Below, piece after piece: positions 8,843-61,672 of a stretch of 64,000 bases of DNA (its first letter is position 1; every line of letters begins with the position of its first letter). This DNA comes from Candidatus Bathyarchaeota archaeon (GTDB lineage Archaea > Thermoproteota > Bathyarchaeia > Bathyarchaeales > Bathyarchaeaceae): positions 79,778 to 143,777 of the forward strand of contig CAWDYQ010000005.1 of assembly GCA_963806645.1 (NCBI GenBank), written 5' to 3'. The notes beneath the pieces are model-generated. The model was not told the origin of the DNA. It saw nothing but the letters and a program-made list of their open reading frames with translations, and searched no databases. The position numbers and the translations under genes were made by a program.

Positions 8843-9846
8843 TTAATGTAAAATGGGGAAAATGACAAATAGAGTGACAATACGAAACAATATGTAAAAC
8901 CAGAATTCTAAACCCGTTGAAAAATAGATTATGGATTGTCCAAAAACGTAATTGCTTATTAGATAATTAAAAAGTGGATCCATGAAATAAATCAAAATAC
9001 TTATTCTAGCAACCCAATTGACAAACTTGTTACTGGGAATATTCAATTCTCTTAAGATAATTAAAACTAACAAAACTGCTGACAAGCTAAAAATTATACT
9101 TCTTCCATTTGAGTAAAGCAGATACTTTAGAGCTTCGGTTGTGGTATTAAAATTAAAAAAGTTAGGACAAATCAATAGTAAATAAAGCAACTAATGGAAC
9201 CATAACTAATCCAACTCTTAATCTAGTAACCCTTTGATATATTGAGAATTTGTTAAGCCAAAACCCAGCAATAAAAATTAGGAAATATTGACTAAACACC
9301 TGACCTAGTTTCAATGAAAAATCAATTACCCATGACAATATAGTAAGAAACCATAAAGATGAAACCAACAAAAACTGCAATTTTGGATTTGGAACATATT
9401 TCTCGATAAAACAAAAAATTATCATAAAAATAAGCAAATATGGAATGAACCACAGAAAGTCCCAGTTATATGCTGAATTTAAAACATCAAAAATGTTAAA
9501 CAGCGTAATTTGAGATAACTAATTGAATTATGTTTAATTGTATCCTGCCAATTACAGATTGTAAAATAGAATAAAATATTGAAATAATTACAAAAGGAAT
9601 GTATAATGTTAATATTTTTGACTTTAAGAATTTTCGAATGCTAGATCCACGTTTATGTAATGAATTATATGCCAAAAAACCACTTACGAAGAAAAAACAG
9701 CTAACTAGGAACCATTCTGTTGGGAATATAATTTCTGGAAAAACAAAAAAAAGATCACTATGGACAAAAACTATCAAGAACAATGCTATGATTTTTAACC
9801 AATCAAATTCAATAATTCTTGCATTAGAAACTATTGATTGACCCAT
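8843..9846 (-). pseudogene. acyltransferase-3 family membrane protein split into three ORFs
   Basis: Track ORFs 9496..9846, 9162..9437 and 8843..9190 are collinear polytopic membrane pieces. The N-terminus FDWLKIIALFLIVFVHS is typical of acyltransferase 3. The frame changes twice. Confidence 0.6.
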
Positions 9847-10802: not shown

Positions 10803-11390
10803 TATGTTGCCCCTTAGTATTGTGATGGTCTTGTTTTACAGCGATGTAATAGCCTAACCAACGTTTTCGTTATTCCTGTAGTTCCTCGCTGAGTTTCGGC
10901 GAACATCTGCTGAAGCTTTCGCCTAACTGCGTTTGTCTTCCTTAAGAGTGTTTTTGCATTTTTTGTATATATTTACAGTAATTTGTCAAAGTTGCGATAA
11001 TCAGTTATGAAATTTTATACTTTTTTTATCTAGAAAATGTGCTAGATTTAGGTCAAACAAAATTTATTCTGTTGATTGGATGATGGACACGATAAATTTT
11101 GTGCGCATTATAACTTTAAAGAAAATGTTTCAAATTGAGTTTTTAAGATTTGATACATCACTGTTTGTTGATGTAGTTCAAAAAAATGCCTCAAGATTTT
11201 TAACTTTAAGAAACGAAACGAGTTGTTAACACTAAACTACTTTAAAGTGTGTTTTGGTATGAACTAAGAAATTGTTCCACTGGAAACATTCGGGTTCAGA
11301 GATATATCCGATTAATATTTCTATAACTTTAGTTTTCGTTGCGTTAAATAATAAGAAAAAAATTGTGGAATTAGGGATATTTTTTTGACG

Positions 11391-47980: not shown

Positions 47981-49148
47981 TCACCTAAAGAATTGTATAC
48001 TGAAAGAGTACATAGCAGCAACTGCATCCCAGCTATATCTTTCCTTATATTTTCGTTCAATGAATTCGCGCGCGTTTTTTCCGAGTCTTTGGGCCATTTC
48101 AGGAGACTCCACTAAACAGAGAATTGCATCTGCTAGTTGCTTCACATTTCCTGATTCAACAAGAAGTCCAGTTTCATTTTGGATTACTAATTCGGATGTA
48201 CCTGCAACATTAGATGCAACTGTAGGTAACTGCGAAGCCATGGCCTCTAATACTGTGAGTGGCATTCCCTCAGTTAAAGAAGGGCGCACAAATATTCCTC
48301 CATCCTGAAATATTGCAGAAATGCTGGGAACTTTTCCAAGAAAAACAAAATTTTCACTAAGCCCTTTACTTGCAACCAATTCCTCAAATTGTGCTTTGTG
48401 TGGGCCATCTCCCACAATCTTGAACTTAATTTTTCGTGAACTTCTTGCGACAATTAATTCCGCAGCTTCTATAAGATATTTAAGACCTTTGTTGGGTAGA
48501 AGGCGACCAACAAATAAAACATTACAGGCTTCAGCATCAGAATTGACGTGTGCAGGTAAAAATCCCTCTAGATCGACACCGTTTTGTATCACTACGACTT
48601 TTTCTGGCGAAACACCAAGTGTAAGCATATAATCTCGAACAGATTTGCTGACTGCGATAACTTTATCGCTTGACGATTAACGTGAATATTCCTAAGCTGT
48701 ATTCATAGAACGAAGCAGTCAATGCTTTTAAGCGTCCAACTAATGCCAATTTTCGGACATCGCCCAAATGAGCTGTTATCACCAGTTTTTTATTAAAGAC
48801 ACGTTTTAACAAAACTGCCAATACCGATGTTGTAAAGAATATGTTGTGGGCGTGGATTATATCGGGACAGAAGTCCTTTGCGACCTTAAATGCACTAAAA
48901 ACGTTTTTTGGGAAACATAACTGGAGACCAAAATTTTCTGTTAAATCAAATGCAGGTAGTCTACAAACGTTGATTCCGTCAATTTCGTAATTGTCTTGTG
49001 AAGGACATTTTCCAAGTGTGATTACTAAAACTTCGCAGCCTTTTTCTGCGAGTCTTTTAGATGTTTCATAAACTACCTTTTCGACGCCACCGCCAATTTG
49101 TGGATAAAAATAGTCGCTAAGCATTAAGACTCGAAGCTTTGAACTCAT
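47981..49148 (-). CDS. GT4-family glycosyltransferase, one frame break near 48650
   Basis: MSSKLRVLMLSDYFYPQIGGGVEKVVYETSKRLAEKG (ATG 49148). The C-terminal half carries FVGRLLPNKG and EGMPLTVLEAMASQLPTVASNVAGTSELV. The connecting text VIAVSKSVRDY lies in a shifted frame. Confidence 0.8.
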
Positions 49149-49363
49149 GAATCTCGCCAATAACGGTGGATTGACGTATATTTTTCGGTGCGTAATATAA
49201 GCATAGTGGTGTGCAATTTTTTGTGTTTTATTATCGTTGCTTGAATGTTTTTGGATGAATATAAGATCCGTTTTTATGTTTGAATCCAAAAAGAATGATT
49301 TTTGAGAAAACTTATTAGGTTAAGTGTTACTGTTTATGATAATAGTGTTACTGGAGTGGTGAC

Positions 49364-50025
49364 ATGCACATACCCGACGGTTTCCTGAGCCTATCAATAT
49401 GCATAGTAATGTACGTAATATCCCTAGGGTTCCTGTTCTGGTCATGGAAAAAAACAAAAAATTCCTACTCTAGCTCGATGACTCCCCTGTTAGCTGTTTC
49501 TAGCGCTTTCGTTTTTGCAGCTCAGATGATAAACTTTCCAATCCTTTATGGCACAAGCGGACATCTGGTAGGTGGAACTTTTCTATCTGTTCTTCTTGGA
49601 CCTTATGCTGCAATATTAAGCATGACAATCGTTGTGATAATGCAAGCACTGTTTTTTGCTGACGGTGGCATCTTTACCTTTGGTGCAAACGTTTTAACAT
49701 GGCAATCATCGGAGGGCTCAGTTTCTTTTTAGTTAAAGCTTTAACTCATGAATCCAAAAGTAATAGCCGGTTTTTCTTTAGTGTCTTTGTGTCTTCTTGG
49801 ATTTCTATGGTGCTTGGGGCCTTAGCTTGCGGTTTGCAAATAGGATTTTCTCCATTATTCTCAGCGGCAGGAGGAATTGTTGTTACAGTCCCTACTATGG
49901 TTTTTTGGCATATTTTAATTGGTTTTGGTGAGGCTATAATTACGGCAACTTTGCTTACTCAACTAAAGCGAATGCCATCCACTGTCTTATCCTCTTTTAC
50001 AACTCTTCGAGGTGGACTTGATTGA
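49364..50025 (+). CDS. cbiM: CbiM/NikM-type Co/Ni ECF transporter substrate component, one frame break near 49700
   Basis: MHIPDGFLS N-terminus, GTSGHLVGG, and polytopic membrane topology. ORFs 49364..49732 and 49699..50025 overlap in different frames. Confidence 0.8.
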
Positions 50026-52256: not shown

Positions 52257-52965
52257 ATGGACATAAAGGGATTTATCGACGTTAGTTTCGTTGACTGGGA
52301 TTCCAAAATTACCTCAGTTATCTTCCTCCCAAATTGCAACTTTCGTTGTCCCTTTTGTCACAACGTAAATCTTGTTCTTAATCCTGAAAAACTAGAAACA
52401 ATACCAATGACATATCTGGATGATCAACTCGAACAACAGAAAAATTGGATTGACGGAATATGCATTACAGGCGGAGAACCAACCCTCCACAAAGATCTAC
52501 CTGAACTGTGTACTCTATTAAAGAAAAAAGGATTCTTAATCAAACTGGATACAAACGGTACTAATCCATCCTATGCTAAGGGAGCTTATTGCGAGAAGCC
52601 TCATAGATTATGTGGCCATGGACATCAAGGCACCACTTACTGACAAGAAATATTCCAAAGCAACTGGAGTTAATACAGAGAAAATGTTAAAAAATGTAAA
52701 GGAAAGCATAAAACTTTTGATAGAATCCAATATAGACTATGAATTCAGAACCACAGTTGTTCCTACGCTCCATGACGAAGAGGACATAAAACAGATATGT
52801 CACAGCTTGAAAGGATGCCAAAAATATATTTTACAGAAGTTTGATGTCAGCATTGGAAAAACAACTATAAATCCTGACTTGATATCAAAATCGTTTAGCG
52901 AAGAAGAAATGCAAAATTTTTTAGTTTCAGCTCAGGAAATAATTCCAAACACTAAACTTAGGTAA
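52257..52965 (+). CDS. radical SAM activating enzyme (anaerobic RNR activase / PflA-like), one frame break near 52590
   Basis: GFIDVSFVDWDSKITSVIFLPNCNFRCPFCHN, GICITGGEPTL and KLDTNGTNP. The C-terminal half continues in the overlapping ORF 52573..52965. Confidence 0.75.
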
Positions 52966-53021
52966 AATAAGCATTTTTGGAACTAAAACCTTTTTAGAGC
53001 TCGAAATGGTATATGAAAGGG

Positions 53022-53141
53022 GCTCTCACCAAAGCCTGTACCACGCCACCCTTGAATGGATAAATTTTGGATATCTCATTATGAGATTATTCAGGTTTTG
53101 GGATTTACGCGTGCAGAGCAGGTCTCCTTTTCGGTGAGAGC
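53022..53141 (+). ncRNA. candidate structured RNA or palindromic element (120-nt GC-rich rod-like hairpin)
   Basis: A GC-rich island in AT-rich intergenic DNA. Nested pairings: GCUCUCACC(53022-30)/GGUGAGAGC(53133-41); GCCUG(53034-38)/CAGGU(53119-23); CACGC(53042-46)/GCGUG(53109-13); CUUGAAU(53051-57)/AUUCAGG(53089-95); apical AUCUC/GAGAU. G-U pairs occur only if the + strand is read. Class unknown. Confidence 0.35.
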
Positions 53142-53600
53142 ATTAACTACTATCAATAACTTAGACTAAAGGTTTGAACACAAAAACGATTATATCTACA
53201 CTGGAAATAGTCCTGATTTTTAACAAGGTTACTTTTTTCTACCTACAGAACTTAGTTGTGAAATAAATCTCCAGATATTATGCATACCCTACAAATCGGT
53301 AAAATCTATTTAAAAACAAACATCCTGAGAAATCGATTAAATATACACGATCAGATATTCAAAACCAAATTTCATCAAAAAGAAATTGGTTTACGAAAAA
53401 AGAAAACCTTGCTAAAATTCCGAAATGTCGAATCTACCAGATATCTTCTTGAATTGTTTTTTGGAAAACAATAACCGATAATCTGATGAACGAAACGATC
53501 CTTCAATATTAAATCAAAAGAAGTAGTTGTGACCGCGATTTTTTCATAAGTCATTACTACTACATTCTTGAATTTTTTGTATTTGTTATTATTAGAAAAT

Positions 53601-53654
53601 ATTAGAAGTTGTTGAACATGGAAAATTCAGCAACGGTCAACAACAACTTCTAAT
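53601..53654. repeat. perfect 14-bp inverted repeat with a 26-nt spacer
   Basis: ATTAGAAGTTGTTG (53601-53614) and CAACAACTTCTAAT (53641-53654) are exact reverse complements. Intergenic. Confidence 0.6.
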
Positions 53655-53869
53655 ACTAAATCAATAAATTCCAGCTGGTTTGTCCTTAATCAACAAAGAG
53701 ACTGTTTAGATTCAAAAACACGCATATTAACTGAAAAGTTGGTTTGTAGGTAATTAAAATTTGGGTTAGAAAAAATTGAAACCATGCCAAGATTAAGGAA
53801 ATGGCTGTTTGTATTAACAGTGGTGAAATTGCCACATCTCCCGTAAAATTCCCCCCTTTTTTTAGTAAT

Positions 53870-56800
53870 TTACGTAAAGCAGATCGGGTTTCTTATGTAG
53901 TCTTGATTTCTAAGTTTCTTAACCAGTATTGACTTTTTGCAATCTAATGGGTCATCACTTTGTGTTATGTTGATTTCTCCATCAAACAGATTAATGACTG
54001 CTTTTGATTGATCTGGAGGGTGCATCTCTGGATCCATGACTGCCAACATAGTAAATCCTTTAGATCCCAAATCTGTAATCAATTCTGAAATCCATTTACA
54101 AGTTGCTTTAGCTTCATAATCCAATATAACATTAGAAACAGTTCCAATACAAATCCGCTTCTTCTTTGATGGATCTATACTTCGATAAGCTTTAGCTAAT
54201 GAAATAGAAAGATTTGTGAGATCAGTTTTACTTCTAAGCTTGAAGATGTTTGGTAATTCAGGAACTTGAGTTTTAGGTTTAGGATTACACAAGAACAAAT
54301 AGAAATTGGGATTATCTAGCAGATTTTCTAAACCATCTGCTTCTGTAGAAACATAGAATACTATTTCATTTTCATTAATTCCAGCTTCTAAGAAAGTTCT
54401 TAACAATATATTCTCTTTCATCACTTGGAGAACCAGTCAAAACAACGGCATAAGCTTTAGGAATACCACCTAATAGAAGTGAATCAAGTTCTGGGGTTCC
54501 AGTAGAAATTCGGTTAGAAAGAACAACCTCTTCAACGTTTATTTTAATAGATTTCAATTGAATAGATCTGCTCTGTCCCCGTTCATCTAAGTAATGAACC
54601 TTAGGTTTAAGCTGATATTCTCCTTTCTTTGAAGGTTGAAGAACAAGCTTCACTTCTACCAACTTGAGAGGAGCAAGCTGTTTCCCCTTCATTTTTAAAC
54701 AAGTATCTTCTATTCGGTAAATTTCAGGTTTCTTTACCACAACAAAGTCTGAAGGAACAAAATCATCCACGCTCATCAATAAGGCAGGTTCTCTACCAGC
54801 ATTAACAAACTCAACAGACAAACAGAAGGATTCACCAACCTTAACTTCTTTAACCGTAGTAACTAAATTAGCTTGGACATTTGCATGTTCAAACCTTTCT
54901 AAACCAACTGAGACTTCATTTGTTGGAGATGGTGCTGAAAACGATAAAGTACTTGAAGCTATTGTAGGTGCTTGCATCACCTGACTTAAAGATATAGCTA
55001 ATGTTTTTTCTTCTCTAACATTAACCAAAATTTCTTGCACCTGAGCTGTCTTTTCTGGTTGCTTAGCTTTCATAAATGAGCCAGCAGCAATCTGCAACAA
55101 ATTCTCAGCCATCTGATACTGCTTAGCCTTTTTCTCAGGATCAATCTCGCTTTCAGCCTGATTCATAAAAACATAAGCATCAAACAAACGAAGAGTAGCC
55201 TTAGCATACTCTGAAGCATTCTTAAATCCAGCTTGAAGGTAGCTGGTAGCAGCATCCTTAATGTATTGCTTAGCTAATGCATTTTCCTTTAAATCCATAC
55301 TAGTTTTATACTTTAAGCCCGAAGCTAATCCTCTACAAAAATTGCTGTTACCTAAAACCCAAAGACTGGCCTTTTTTGTGAAGCAGTGTTCTTTTGCTTG
55401 CTCAAAAAGTTCTGCAGCTTCTAGATAGGATTCAGAGGAGGTAGTTTCTTCTGCATTTGCCATCTTCTCCCAAGCCTGGCACAGAATCGCAATATATTTT
55501 AGTTCTTTACGTTCAGCCTCAACTTCTATCATATCAATTATTTCGGAGATACTTTGTGTTGCTTCTCTATATTTTCTTGAGCTAAGCAGATACTTGCCTT
55601 CTCTGTCTAACAGTTTTGCTTCTTCCATAAAGATACGTGCTTCACAGTATTTCCGTCTAACTTCAGAAGCTCCGAATAAATTCTGGATTATTTCCTTTTC
55701 ATCTGCAGAGGTGATTTGGGGCATTTTTTGTTTGATTGATTCTTGGGCTTTGCTAAACTGTTCGGATGCTTTTTGGAATGCTTGTTTTGCCTGTTGAGTG
55801 TTCTCTTTTCTGCTAAGTCCTTCTGCCTCTTCCATATGTGACCAAGCAAAATAATTGGATGCTAAATAACTCCAAGAATCTGTTGATTCATGAAGCTTAG
55901 CAGCCTGTTCAAAGTGTTTTTGAGACTCTTCGTAATCCCCAATGGAGTGAAAATATCTGGCTTGCTCGATTTTACTCCAAGCTTCCATATAAAAAAAATG
56001 TTCTCCGAAGAAGTCTTTGAGTTGTGAAATTTTTTTGGAGGCAAGGTCATATGCTTGCGATGCCAATTCATAACTTGTTGAGGCTTCCTGAAACTCACTA
56101 GCCTTATGTTGAAGTTGAGCTAGTTGCCAATATGACTCAGCCACATGCGTGGGCAATTCTGCTTTCCTAAAATAGGCTGATGCTTGCTTGTAGGCTTCCA
56201 ATGCTTTATGCAAACTTACTTGGTCTTGGGTTACGGAGAAAAATTGCTTTTGAATTCCTCCAAGCTGATGGTAGTATCGTCCGAAATTTAGATATGAGCC
56301 AGCAGTGAACTGCAGTTTTGGTGTTCTATTCATAAATTCGATACTCCTCTCAATTGAAGCATTTGCCTGATTTAGCGATTTGATCTTCTCAGTACGACAT
56401 GTTTCTGTTTTAGCAAGTTCCTTTTGTATCATCGCTAACTGACTGAAGTTAGCAGCAAAGAAAGAAAATGTAGCCTTACTCATTTCCTCTAAATACTTCA
56501 AATTATTCTTAATAGCAAATTGAGCTTTGTTGAGCAACTTTCTTTTTTCATCAATTTCGTTATTAGATACTGCAAGTTCCCATAAAACGTCGCTCAAAAC
56601 GACAGTAATTCGGTCATAATAATATTTCCAACCTTGAAAACGTTCTCTTTCCTTCTCAATTAGTTCTAATGCTCTTTCAAGAATTGCCTTTTTTGTTCTT
56701 GGATTAGTTTCATATTCTGCAAGACTATGAAGTCCATTACAAAAGAAATGAAGAGAATTATAAACACCTGGAGTGTTGTTGATTATTTGATAGTTATTTC

Positions 56801-57875
56801 CAGCTTCTCGGCTTATTCTTATGGCGTTCTTACAATACTCCTTTTGTATATTGGGATCTTCTTCAATCCAGGCCCTATTCAGAATTAACCAACTTTTCGA
56901 ATTTTTTCCATTACTTGTTAATAGATTATCGCGAGTAATTCTTCCATATTCTATAGTTTTCTCACAAAACTCCATTTGTAAGATGGGATTTGGAACAACA
57001 AACCTTGAGTTAGCAAAACTTACTGCAAAGGCTGACCAACCGATTAACCAAGCCTCATTAATCTGCTGAGCTAGTTCTAAAGCCTTACATGAGTAGTTTC
57101 GACTCTTCTCATTTAATTGCTTGAGTTTTTCTTTAGATTCAAATATCCAATTACTAAAAATGTAATACAAACTGGCAAAACAGTAAGCTCTTGCAAGCTC
57201 GAAGTCATCATCCAACTTCAAAAATATAGCTATTGCTTTTTCAGCGAGAGCTATACATTCTTTATAGATAGCGCTAAATTCAGAATGTGACGAAACAAGG
57301 GTAAATCGATCATGCCAAAACGTGCAATTTTCAATTAGATTATTGCATGTTTTGCCCACAGAATACATGTCACCAATTTGTTCATAAGCTTCTAGCACTT
57401 GATTTTCGAGATTCCACCACTTAGTAAGGAGATGCTTTTTTTGTGATGGGTATCTCTCAATCAAAGATTGTGTAAAGAAAACCATAGCATTAGCATGGTT
57501 AATTCTTGTCTGATAATTCTCTTCATTTATCTCAAGAAGTTCGGATTCTTTTTCATAAGCTTGTGTGGCCTGTTTCATGTGTTTTTGATATTCATTATTG
57601 CTTTGTGTTTGAAATGCAGCCTTATAGTAACAAAAACCAATGTTTTCTTGTATTTCAGCTGCTTTAAGTGCATTCTTATTTTTTATTAACAAATCGATTG
57701 CTTTTTTGTAATATTTTATTGCTTGAAACCATTCATACTTTTTCTCTAACTCTTTTGCTTTCGTTTGAAGAGACTCCAAGTTCCCGTCCTGCAAAGATAT
57801 CAACAGACAATTATTATTAGTGTAGCATTGAAATAATTTGTTACAACGTTTGTTGTGGGAAAATGCTATATTCAT
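53870..57875 (-). CDS. giant TPR-like repeat protein with a beta-sandwich domain and a degenerate KaiC/RecA-like C-terminal domain; one frame break near 54400
   Basis: The 1166-aa ORF contains about 950 aa of helical Ala/Tyr/Lys/Glu repeats (TPR-like). It is followed by VKVGESFCLSVEFVNAGREPALL... (CARDB/Ig-like) and ISTGTPELDSLLLGGIPKAYAVVLTGSPSDERE (KaiC-type N-terminus without GKT). It continues after a shift in ORF 53870..54424 (ILLRTFLEAGINENEIVFYVS...). Confidence 0.75.
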
Positions 57876-61035: not shown

Positions 61036-61431
61036 TTATGTTAAACATATTGGATTTTTTATGTAATCTTGGTTTCTGAGTTTCTTTACTCTTATCGATT
61101 TTTTGCATTCTAATGGGTCTTCGGTTTGGGTGATGCTGATTTCCCCATCAAAAAGTCAATGACCGCTGTGGCTTGGTCTAAAGGATGCATACCTGGATTC
61201 ATTACTGCTAAGCATTGTGAAGCCTTTTGAACTCATGTCAGTGATTAGTTCAGCAATCCATCTTCTGGTTGGTTCTGCATGATGACTAATCAGCACGTCA
61301 GAGACTGTCTCAACACAGATTCGTTTATTTTTTGAAGGTTCAACGTTACGATAGGCTTTAGCAAGAGATATTGATAGATTAGTTAAATCAGTTTTACTTC
61401 GAAGCTCGAAAACACGGAAATCTATACACAT
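61036..61431 (-). pseudogene. truncated, frame-broken paralog of the KaiC-like C-terminus of the 53870..57875 gene
   Basis: FELRSKTDLTNLSISLAKAYRNVEPSKNKRICVETVSDVLISHHAEPTRRWIAELITDMSSKGFTML aligns with FKLRSKTDLTNLSISLAKAYRSIDPSKKKRICIGTVSNVILDYEAKATCKWISELITDLGSKGFTML. Shifted frames continue as AVMNPGMHPLDQATAVI and FDGEISITQTEDPLECKKSIRVKKLRNQDYIKNPICLT*. Everything N-terminal to this is missing. Confidence 0.7.
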
Positions 61432-61594: not shown

Positions 61595-61672
61595 GCTCCG
61601 GTAGTATAGTCCGGTTAAGTATGACGGCCTCTCGAGCCGCCGACCCGGGTTCGAATCCCGGCCGGAGCACCA
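61595..61672 (+). tRNA. tRNA-Glu (anticodon CUC), CCA encoded
   Basis: Manual cloverleaf: acceptor GCUCCGG/CCGGAGC, D arm GUAU-AGUCCGGUUAA-GUAU, anticodon stem ACGGC/GCCGC (one A-C mismatch), loop CUCUCGA. T arm CCGGG-UUCGAAU-CCCGG, discriminator A, CCA. GC-rich against the AT-rich background. Confidence 0.9.

Follow-up and report, generated by a model that had tools for sequence, protein, structure and literature searches.

A 120-nt hairpin in a gene-free gap

The window, by which we mean the whole 64-kb stretch of DNA analyzed here, contains a gap of 904 nt (52966-53869) that carries short ORFs alone, none of them with a Pfam match and all of them lost in close relatives, as expected from an earlier note on this DNA, which had described a gene-free interval of about 900 nt. 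About 300 nt of this gap are conserved non-coding sequence. The gene upstream of the gap encodes an NrdG-like radical SAM activase whose closest homologues are named Candidatus Bathyarchaeota; it is frameshifted in the window, where 2 overlapping ORFs stand for a protein that is intact in relatives (235 aa, 93% identity). Other genes are also split by apparent frameshifts, and the split regions (52257-52965, 53870-57875, 49364-50025, and 47981-49289) involve TPR/KaiC-like, CbiM, and glycosyltransferase genes besides the NrdG-like one, which suggests either an indel-prone assembly or pseudogenes.

Within the gap, positions 53022 to 53141 fold into one long imperfect hairpin of 120 nt, as had been claimed from the letters alone. 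RNAfold gave an MFE of -40.5 kcal/mol for the plus strand against a dinucleotide-shuffle mean of -27.5 kcal/mol (z = -4.15; 0/200 shuffles as good), and the reverse strand was nearly as stable (MFE -38.0, z = -4.03). The hairpin is closed by the perfect 9-bp stem that the same note had drawn, formed by GCTCTCACC (53022-53030, plus strand) and its reverse complement (53133-53141). This 9-mer occurs exactly twice in the window, once per stem strand, when about 0.19 occurrences are expected, and 2 occurrences were reached in 0/100 shuffles. The description of the hairpin as GC-rich holds relative to the gap (30% GC) and to the window (36%) but not in absolute terms, since the hairpin has 45.8% GC; along its length, the 2 flanks reach 56% to 61% and the apical third just 27%. 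No second copy of the hairpin was found within the 64-kb window. We also considered the coding potential of a 43-aa ORF over the hairpin and of an ORF starting with MNPKTL in its flank, and rejected both, as their start codons vary, indels of 1-2 nt break the frames, and neither matches Pfam.

Several other features surround the hairpin. The adjoining block 53182-53325, which is kept in 10-17 loci regardless of what lies beyond, contains CTCCAGATATTATG and, at 53298-53317, a second TATA-like box (GGTAAAATnTnTTTAAAA). Read as minus strand, the block has little consensus structure; read as plus strand, it forms some hairpins. Further along, positions 53596-53659 form a strong hairpin of 16-18 bp (TTAGAAGTTGTTGAAC...GTCAACAACAACTTCTAA) that is conserved in 2 other loci (L001 and L002). 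One change within an arm produces A·C if the plus strand is read and G·U if the minus strand is read. The minus-strand KaiC-like gene may have in this hairpin its terminator or another 3' structure; an Rfam row for mir-1197 at these positions was discarded as a sub-threshold chance match. A 38-nt sequence, AAAAAAAGGGGGGGAATTTGCGGGAG...GCCATTT, occurs at 2927-2964 and, inverted, at 53826-53863 (79% identity). A minus-strand gene ends at 53870, and the second copy immediately follows its stop codon. Finally, a 120-nt direct repeat (53870-53989 and 61036-61155, 79% identity) corresponds to paralogous C-terminal segments of KaiC-like genes, and the second segment, next to the ORF 61156-61431, looks like a gene fragment.

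The hairpin recurs at low copy number in many uncultured Bathyarchaeia

We scanned one genome per GTDB species with a two-block DNA pattern and obtained 25 matches. Twenty-three of the 25 contigs belong to Bathyarchaeia and come from 18 species MAGs with 1-2 copies each, 5 MAGs carrying 2 copies on separate contigs; because the search used exact patterns, these copy numbers are lower bounds. The other 2 matches (L027 and L029, Actinomycetota) are GC-rich coding sequences without a hairpin, in which the pattern blocks matched by chance, and were set aside. A second pattern revealed at least 120 further loci in metagenome contigs, all of them containing the element. Overall, at least 128 distinct core sequences were counted among the matches listed, in several unrelated gene contexts.

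Conservation of the hairpin was evident also when neighboring genes were compared. In every contig compared that carries an NrdG-like homologue 76% to 93% identical to that of the window, the hairpin lies 3' of the gene with nearly unchanged sequence, and syntenic loci retain a near-identical core despite a neighboring protein only 59% to 93% identical. At one locus with a 72%-identical NrdG-like homologue, a tRNA stands in the place of the hairpin.

The earlier note had kept 2 readings apart by copy number, a structured ncRNA or a MITE-like palindrome with 9-bp terminal inverted repeats. Such terminal repeats are indeed there, both strands fold, and one contig contains a partial duplicate 1.9 kb from the full copy, as a mobile, protein-binding, or origin palindrome acting as DNA might show. 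A MITE would be expected to show insertion polymorphism and target-site duplication; no such duplication was noticed, and different species carry the element at orthologous positions. Its placement with respect to nrdG is shared by 21 loci, and that with respect to rpl7ae by another 21. By exact-pattern search, the 64-kb window contains one copy and each MAG 1-2, and a collection of viral contigs gave 0 matches. The core is invariant over more than 100 variants while the terminal repeats compensate each other, which is the opposite of what a MITE shows, and the internal loops are asymmetric. The single copy in the window, the low copy number per genome, the conservation across species, and the covariation described below all fall on the side of a structured ncRNA. 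The hairpin is neither a chance fold nor a MITE, and any element of this kind working as DNA is extremely improbable.

Damaged copies were observed at 2 loci. In L041, a full and a truncated copy (9355-9479 and 11241-11365) flank a single gene for a 502-aa secreted repeat (surface) protein, the truncated copy keeping the promoter-side two-thirds and the promoter motif, suggesting that the RNA gene was partly duplicated or was the site of an insertion. In L086 (about 430-860), an internal deletion has taken away one closing-helix strand together with the promoter motif and about 55 nt more, and this copy is therefore probably dead.

Covariation of the closing and apical helices and an invariant core

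A covariance model, R1, was built from 37 sequences with a rod structure of 30 pairs. Among the matches listed, R1 recovers 100 full-length non-redundant copies with 57-151 bits, and the copy of the window scores 132.6 bits over 53018-53145. In the R1 alignment of the 100 homologues, 94.4% of cells are paired versus 88.8% in column shuffles, a value that 0/500 shuffles reach; all 5 pairing measures beat 500/500 shuffles, and all slid controls drop to 32% to 53% paired. We regard the element as very probably a genuine conserved structured RNA gene. Coordinates of its parts are collected in Table 1.

Table 1. Features of the element and its flanks in the window (strand column: predicted strand of the RNA)
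Feature	Positions	Strand	Basis or remark
Hairpin body of the RNA	53022..53141	minus (probable)	Fold statistics and R1; ~120-127 nt in relatives
Closing helix H1, one strand, GCTCTCACC on plus	53022..53030	minus	Pairs with 53133-53141
Closing helix H1, partner, GGTGAGAGC on plus	53133..53141	minus	Would be the RNA 5' end if minus strand
Helix H2, GCCTGT/GCAGGT	53034..53039 + 53118..53123	minus	Both terminal pairs G·U on plus strand
Helix H3, CACGC/GCGTG	53042..53046 + 53109..53113	minus	98% paired
Helix H4, CCC/GGG	53049..53051 + 53100..53102	minus	100% paired, invariant
Invariant asymmetric loop ATTTAC (ATTTAY) beside H4 GGG	53103..53108, opposite CA	minus	Alignment
Conserved AATTTTGG on plus, CCAAAAUU on minus	53063..53070	minus	Beside apical hairpin; sequence-level conservation
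Apical hairpin, ATCTC-loop-GAGAT	53073..53087	minus	First pair covaries; loop sequence variable
Putative BRE/TATA promoter, GTGTTCAAACCTTTAGT on minus	53165..53181	minus	BRE-like TTCAAA, then TATA-like CCTTTAGT; ends 23 nt before hairpin
Spacer from TATA-like box to predicted start (~53141-53144)	53142..53164	minus	Standard archaeal TATA-to-start distance
3' flank CCCUUUCAUAUACC, pyrimidine/U-rich, likely termination or 3'-end region	53008..53021	minus	Composition
Further conserved non-coding sequence, ~150 nt	53182..53325		Only in the subfamily of the window (nrdG-adjacent)

Five nested helices had been drawn by hand, and the alignment treats them differently. Covariation supports the closing and the apical helix. 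H1 is extended to 11 bp in most relatives, and all 11 modelled pairs change on both sides, as in GCUCUCACC/GGUGAGAGC versus GUUGCCCUC/GGGGGCAAC versus GCUGCCCU/AGGACAGC; the first pair of the apical hairpin is A-U in 69 sequences, U-A in 21, and C-G in 2. The 3 inner helices are invariant in sequence, so that covariation is uninformative on their pairing and neither confirms nor refutes it. In H2, the inner 4 pairs are 94% to 100% paired with C·A as the sole variation, and the outer pair is G·U 54, G-C 20, and A-U 6 times. H3 varies only by 9 C·A/A·C cells, 1 G·U, and 1 C·U. The few changes inside H2-H4 are almost all transitions giving C·A. This invariance is partly imposed, as the search patterns fixed the 5' strand of H2-H4, including that of H3, and would miss compensated variants; pairing of H2-H4 is plausible, though unproven.

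Taken together with the asymmetric loops between them, H2, H3, and H4 form an inner core of about 45 nt that is essentially unchanged among homologues. The stretch GGG plus ATTTAY (53100..53108) is invariant except for rare single changes over the 128 distinct sequences among the matches listed. The conserved segment at 53063..53070 shows no covariation with the opposite segment in the alignment. Pairing between the 2 variable segments that flank the apical hairpin was also considered and rejected, as it shows no covariation and just places U opposite purines. Plain mutual information on a MAFFT alignment was unusable, being swamped by subfamily structure and misalignment.

Probable strand and putative promoter of the predicted RNA

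The earlier note had favored a plus-strand RNA on the basis of G·U pairs that become C-A mismatches on the other strand. This argument is doubtful when relatives are considered, as the 2 pairs cited are the invariant terminal pairs of a single helix, H2. Leaving those aside, variation within helices consists of 21 G·U cells versus 76 cells with C·A/A·C, the latter being G·U when the minus strand is read, and in H1 canonical pairs make up 91.2% on the minus strand versus 87.5% on the plus strand. Against this count stand the 2 invariant H2 pairs (153 cells), which are G·U on the plus strand alone and would become A·C in a minus-strand RNA, and a mean MFE slightly better for the plus strand (-43.1 versus -41.0 kcal/mol), the minus strand being the more stable in 33/99 sequences.

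We found the BRE/TATA signal of a stand-alone archaeal RNA gene, expected about 25 nt upstream, on the minus strand as a consensus match. In the window, the TATA-like box CCTTTAGT is weak. Its counterparts elsewhere (GGATTCATAAG-ATTTTTAAC, ...ATTTATTAC, TTCATAAATCATTTAAAC, and CTTCATAAACCATATAAAG) lie at a fixed distance of 21-24 nt from H1 in all subfamilies, including divergent members whose other flanks cannot be aligned, and the consensus has A in 84% at -35 and T in 80% at -30. The tRNA-Glu genes of the lineage carry a CTATATAC box at comparable distance. On the other side of the rod, the 13 nt beyond H1 toward 53008-53021 are C-depleted on the plus strand and thus G-depleted on the minus strand, where the consensus YUUUYMA directly follows H1; the minus-strand U-tract after the rod is short (3-4 U). 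The conserved minus-strand promoter and the helix mismatches that are C·A on the plus strand support the reading of a stand-alone minus-strand gene. Therefore, as far as sequence comparison can tell, transcription probably proceeds from the minus strand, opposite to what had been proposed, and the case shows that G·U counting in one sequence can indicate the wrong strand.

The same RNA gene might still be read on the plus strand, with the hairpin as its 5' domain followed by an A/U-rich tail of 60-200 nt, in which a motif (UUAUGAAUCC and similar) would act as a single-stranded seed or fold back onto the invariant GGAUUUAU loop. Besides the 2 H2 pairs and the MFE, this reading can call on a TATA-like CTTTTTAG in the window (52990-52997, about 25 nt ahead of G53020), on runs of 4 or more T that peak 50-79 nt past the hairpin, on a tail sequence AUGAAUCC complementary to the GGAUUUAU loop over 8 bp, and on a loop variant U->C (L012 and L073) that converts U·G to C-G. 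Across subfamilies, however, no conserved TATA-like box stands at a fixed distance on the plus-strand side of the hairpin. The tail past the motif is not conserved between subfamilies, and the motif itself, when read from the opposite strand, agrees exactly with a BRE/TATA promoter in its sequence, in the order of its parts, and in their spacing. The plus-strand sequences ACTAAAGGTTTGAACAC in the window (53165-53181) and GTTAAAAATCTTATGAATCC, GTAATAAATCTTATGAATCC, or GTTTAAATGATTTATGAAC in other subfamilies correspond on the minus strand to a BRE-like TTCATAA/TTCAAA with a TATA box (ATTTTTAA, ATTTATTA, CATTTAAA, or CCATATAAA) behind it. With the helix variation of 76 to 21 for the minus strand added, we consider a plus-strand gene unlikely, while giving it more weight than any other alternative discussed here.

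The element is found in varied gene contexts

Among the matches listed, 2 neighborhoods recur. The nrdG-like gene adjoins the element in 21/150 loci (about 14%), convergent with it on the minus-strand reading; in the window, the hairpin begins 56 nt past the radical SAM stop codon. In another 21/150 loci (about 14%), the neighbor is the operon rpl7ae-rps28e-rpl24e, with adenylate kinase and aIF5B genes further along. In this subfamily (L015, L023, L031, L041, L046, L062, and 15 more), 134-494 nt always separate the element from the operon start, and if the RNA is encoded on the minus strand, as its sequence predicts, it would precede the L7Ae operon and run in the same direction. About 70% of the loci listed have neither recurrent neighbor. 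Clustering of the neighborhoods returned only synteny blocks, with no recurrent gene for an RNA-binding or other partner protein.

The arrangements in these 2 groups of 21 loci would also be compatible with a cis element, which could serve the nrdG-like radical SAM gene as terminator or 3'-UTR structure, or precede the rpl7ae operon as a leader that is co-oriented with it if on the minus strand. A riboswitch or cis leader would keep a constant position upstream of one gene class; here the neighbors vary, most loci lack both of the recurrent ones, and those 2 are unrelated and differ in their orientation relative to the element. Moreover, 120 nt with an invariant core far exceed what a terminator needs, and on the favored strand the element is convergent with nrdG. 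A cis function is thus very unlikely, and the varied gene context argues for a trans-acting gene.

In 4 loci of the subfamily of the window, about 260 nt separate the element from a tRNA gene whose 5' sequence equals that of the tRNA-Glu of the window (L020 5840-5914, L079 6661-6754, L086 773-847, and L092 1252-1326). In the window, the tRNA-Glu is found at 61595 instead.

The element matches no RNA family in Rfam

We searched Rfam 15 (4,227 families) with the gathering score and at E<=10 on both strands of the window, of 8 divergent loci, and also of 31 large loci. No family was returned at the element on either strand; the rows found elsewhere were just tRNAs and sub-threshold chance matches. 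The earlier note could not fit the hairpin to tRNA, C/D, H/ACA, SRP, or RNase P patterns, and Rfam and ARAGORN, both empty at the element, bear this out.

Each family was then compared by its own hallmarks. A tRNA is a cloverleaf with a T-loop and an anticodon arm (RF00005); in the window, ARAGORN and Rfam detected only the tRNA-Glu at 61595, and nothing at the element there or in the other loci. H/ACA sRNAs have an ACA box 3' of the lower stem, a two-sided pseudouridylation pocket, and a k-turn or k-loop in the upper stem. Directly 3' of the stem, the window reads AUU (plus) or CCC (minus), with ACA in just some relatives, and on inspection the loop above the lower stem has 3 nt against the 6-10 nt of a pocket, with no tandem G·A in the conserved core. 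C/D sRNAs carry C (RUGAUGA) and D (CUGA) boxes beside a short terminal stem; no such boxes are conserved in the alignment, and the C/D rows elsewhere in the gap are sub-threshold chance matches. In RNase P RNA, CR-I and CR-V form P4; no RNase P row was found at the element, the sole one being a 14.9-bit chance match elsewhere in L055.

A highly diverged universal RNA, similar to 5S rRNA or to 4.5S/SRP RNA and missed by the Rfam models, was also considered. A length of about 120-127 nt, paired termini, a strong promoter of its own, and 1-2 copies per genome recall archaeal 5S rRNA, and the rod shape recalls bacterial 4.5S RNA. Short similarities of the element to 5S loop B/C and to SRP helix 8 (GAGCAGGUC), noted by eye, we take to be leads only. 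5S rRNA is a three-way junction of helices I, II/III, and IV/V, and SRP RNA contains helix 8 with a GNAR tetraloop and conserved SRP54-binding loops. In the element, the consensus fold is unbranched, so that it is not 5S-like, and RF00001 remained unmatched at E<=10 on either strand; no Rfam SRP family matched, and the apical loop is variable rather than GNAR, so that without a GNAR-capped helix 8 it is not SRP-like. All 5S, SRP, and RNase P models fell short of E<=10 on both strands of the window and of the divergent members. Truncated (L041) and deleted (L086) copies exist, and the annotation of a closed Bathyarchaeia genome lists two canonical 5S genes along with 16S and 23S (PMC11697101). 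It is therefore highly improbable that the element is one of the universal RNAs in diverged form.

Other readings were tried and rejected on their own grounds. ACUAAAGG and ACAGAA in the window resemble CR-I and CR-V of RNase P RNA, but the P4-like pairing is broken in relatives and no model matches. A k-turn or L7Ae site in the core was dismissed, as the GA dinucleotide is absent from both invariant strands. AAUUUUGG could be taken for an Sm site on the plus strand only, and the motif is degenerate in one subfamily. Mimicry of, or complementarity to, the 1400 region of 16S rRNA reaches at most 6+3 bp. Flanking GCGCGC/GCATGC blocks were examined as a bulge-helix-bulge processing stem and set aside; some of the downstream blocks adjoin or end neighboring tRNA genes, and the upstream ones would be located 3' of the RNA if the minus strand is transcribed. 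On the core sequence or on ncRNAs of Bathyarchaeia, the searchable literature returned nothing relevant.

A predicted RNA with a possible protein-docking core

Considering these results, we propose the following model. The BRE/TATA element at 53165-53181 would direct minus-strand transcription from about 53141-53144, where H1 has its first pair. The product would consist of nothing but the rod, some 125 nt, and would terminate within the U/pyrimidine-rich stretch that lies just beyond 53022. Compensatory changes maintain the closing and apical helices, which would be architectural and hold the molecule together. The working part would be the invariant core, in which ACCUGCUCUGCACGCRUAAAUCCC on the minus strand faces GGGUGGCGUGGUACAGG with asymmetric internal loops; this core may offer a sequence-specific docking platform to a conserved protein, the RNA acting in trans. 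A constrained core of about 45 nt with asymmetric loops is typical of RNAs that dock proteins or form tertiary sites, and for this reason we tentatively suggest, by analogy with 4.5S/SRP RNA, Y RNA, and 6S RNA, a trans-acting scaffold of a lineage-specific ribonucleoprotein. A regulatory antisense RNA or a ribozyme is possible. As for the whole statement, a stand-alone RNA gene of Bathyarchaeia of about 125 nt, read from the minus strand and forming a rod with a protein-docking core that serves as RNP scaffold, we lean slightly toward it.

Bathyarchaeia are among the most abundant archaea of anoxic sediments and soils, and their cultivation is at an early stage, so that knowledge on them comes nearly all from protein-coding genes. 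The element is a candidate new RNA class with predicted expression and strand, and it may well, although we stop just short of favoring this, represent a previously undescribed stable RNA class of Bathyarchaeia, or of a large part of them, as the RNA subunit of a probably housekeeping RNP or ribozyme. About 45 invariant nt, compensatory helices, and a predicted strong promoter of its own over well more than 100 distinct genome and metagenome contigs are the signature of essential RNAs such as SRP RNA, RNase P RNA, and 5S rRNA. If true, the element would be a lineage-specific extra beside the archaeal rRNA, tRNA, SRP RNA, RNase P RNA, and guide RNAs. If expressed, it would give a handle on the RNP by pull-down and structure work, and it would be useful as a taxonomic marker and as a new family for RNA annotation pipelines.

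Comparison with known systems

With MITEs, the element shares a short palindrome, terminal inverted repeats, and an intergenic location; unlike them, it has 1-2 copies at orthologous positions, conserved across the whole class, with covarying stems. It resembles archaeal H/ACA and C/D guide sRNAs as a small stable archaeal RNA with a lower stem of about 9-10 bp, one of its subfamilies adjoining the gene for the k-turn protein L7Ae, but it differs in having no conserved ACA on either strand, a pocket of 3 nt versus 6-10 nt, no C/D boxes, and no Rfam match.

Archaeal 5S rRNA (RF00001) is similar in its length of about 120 nt, in a covarying terminal helix of 9-11 bp, in its BRE/TATA promoter, in 1-2 unlinked copies per genome, and in a strongly conserved interior, while the element differs as an unbranched rod that leaves RF00001 unmatched at E<=10. 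Bacterial 4.5S RNA, or small SRP RNA (RF00169), is like the element a single rod, of about 115 nt, with conserved internal loops, which in 4.5S RNA dock protein; the archaeal SRP RNA is a 7S RNA of about 300 nt. Differences from 4.5S RNA are the lack of the GNAR tetraloop and of the symmetric and asymmetric loops of helix 8, the variable apical loop, and the missing match to any Rfam SRP family. Y RNA and 6S RNA families conserve shape more than sequence, whereas the element keeps about 45 nt invariant and matches them neither in sequence nor by model; common to both sides are a long terminal stem, conserved internal loops and bulges, a short U-rich 3' end, and, as predicted for the element, trans action independent of context. 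By analogy, the element would appear most similar to 5S rRNA in size, paired termini, promoter, and copy number, and most similar in shape to bacterial 4.5S RNA, Y RNA, or 6S RNA.
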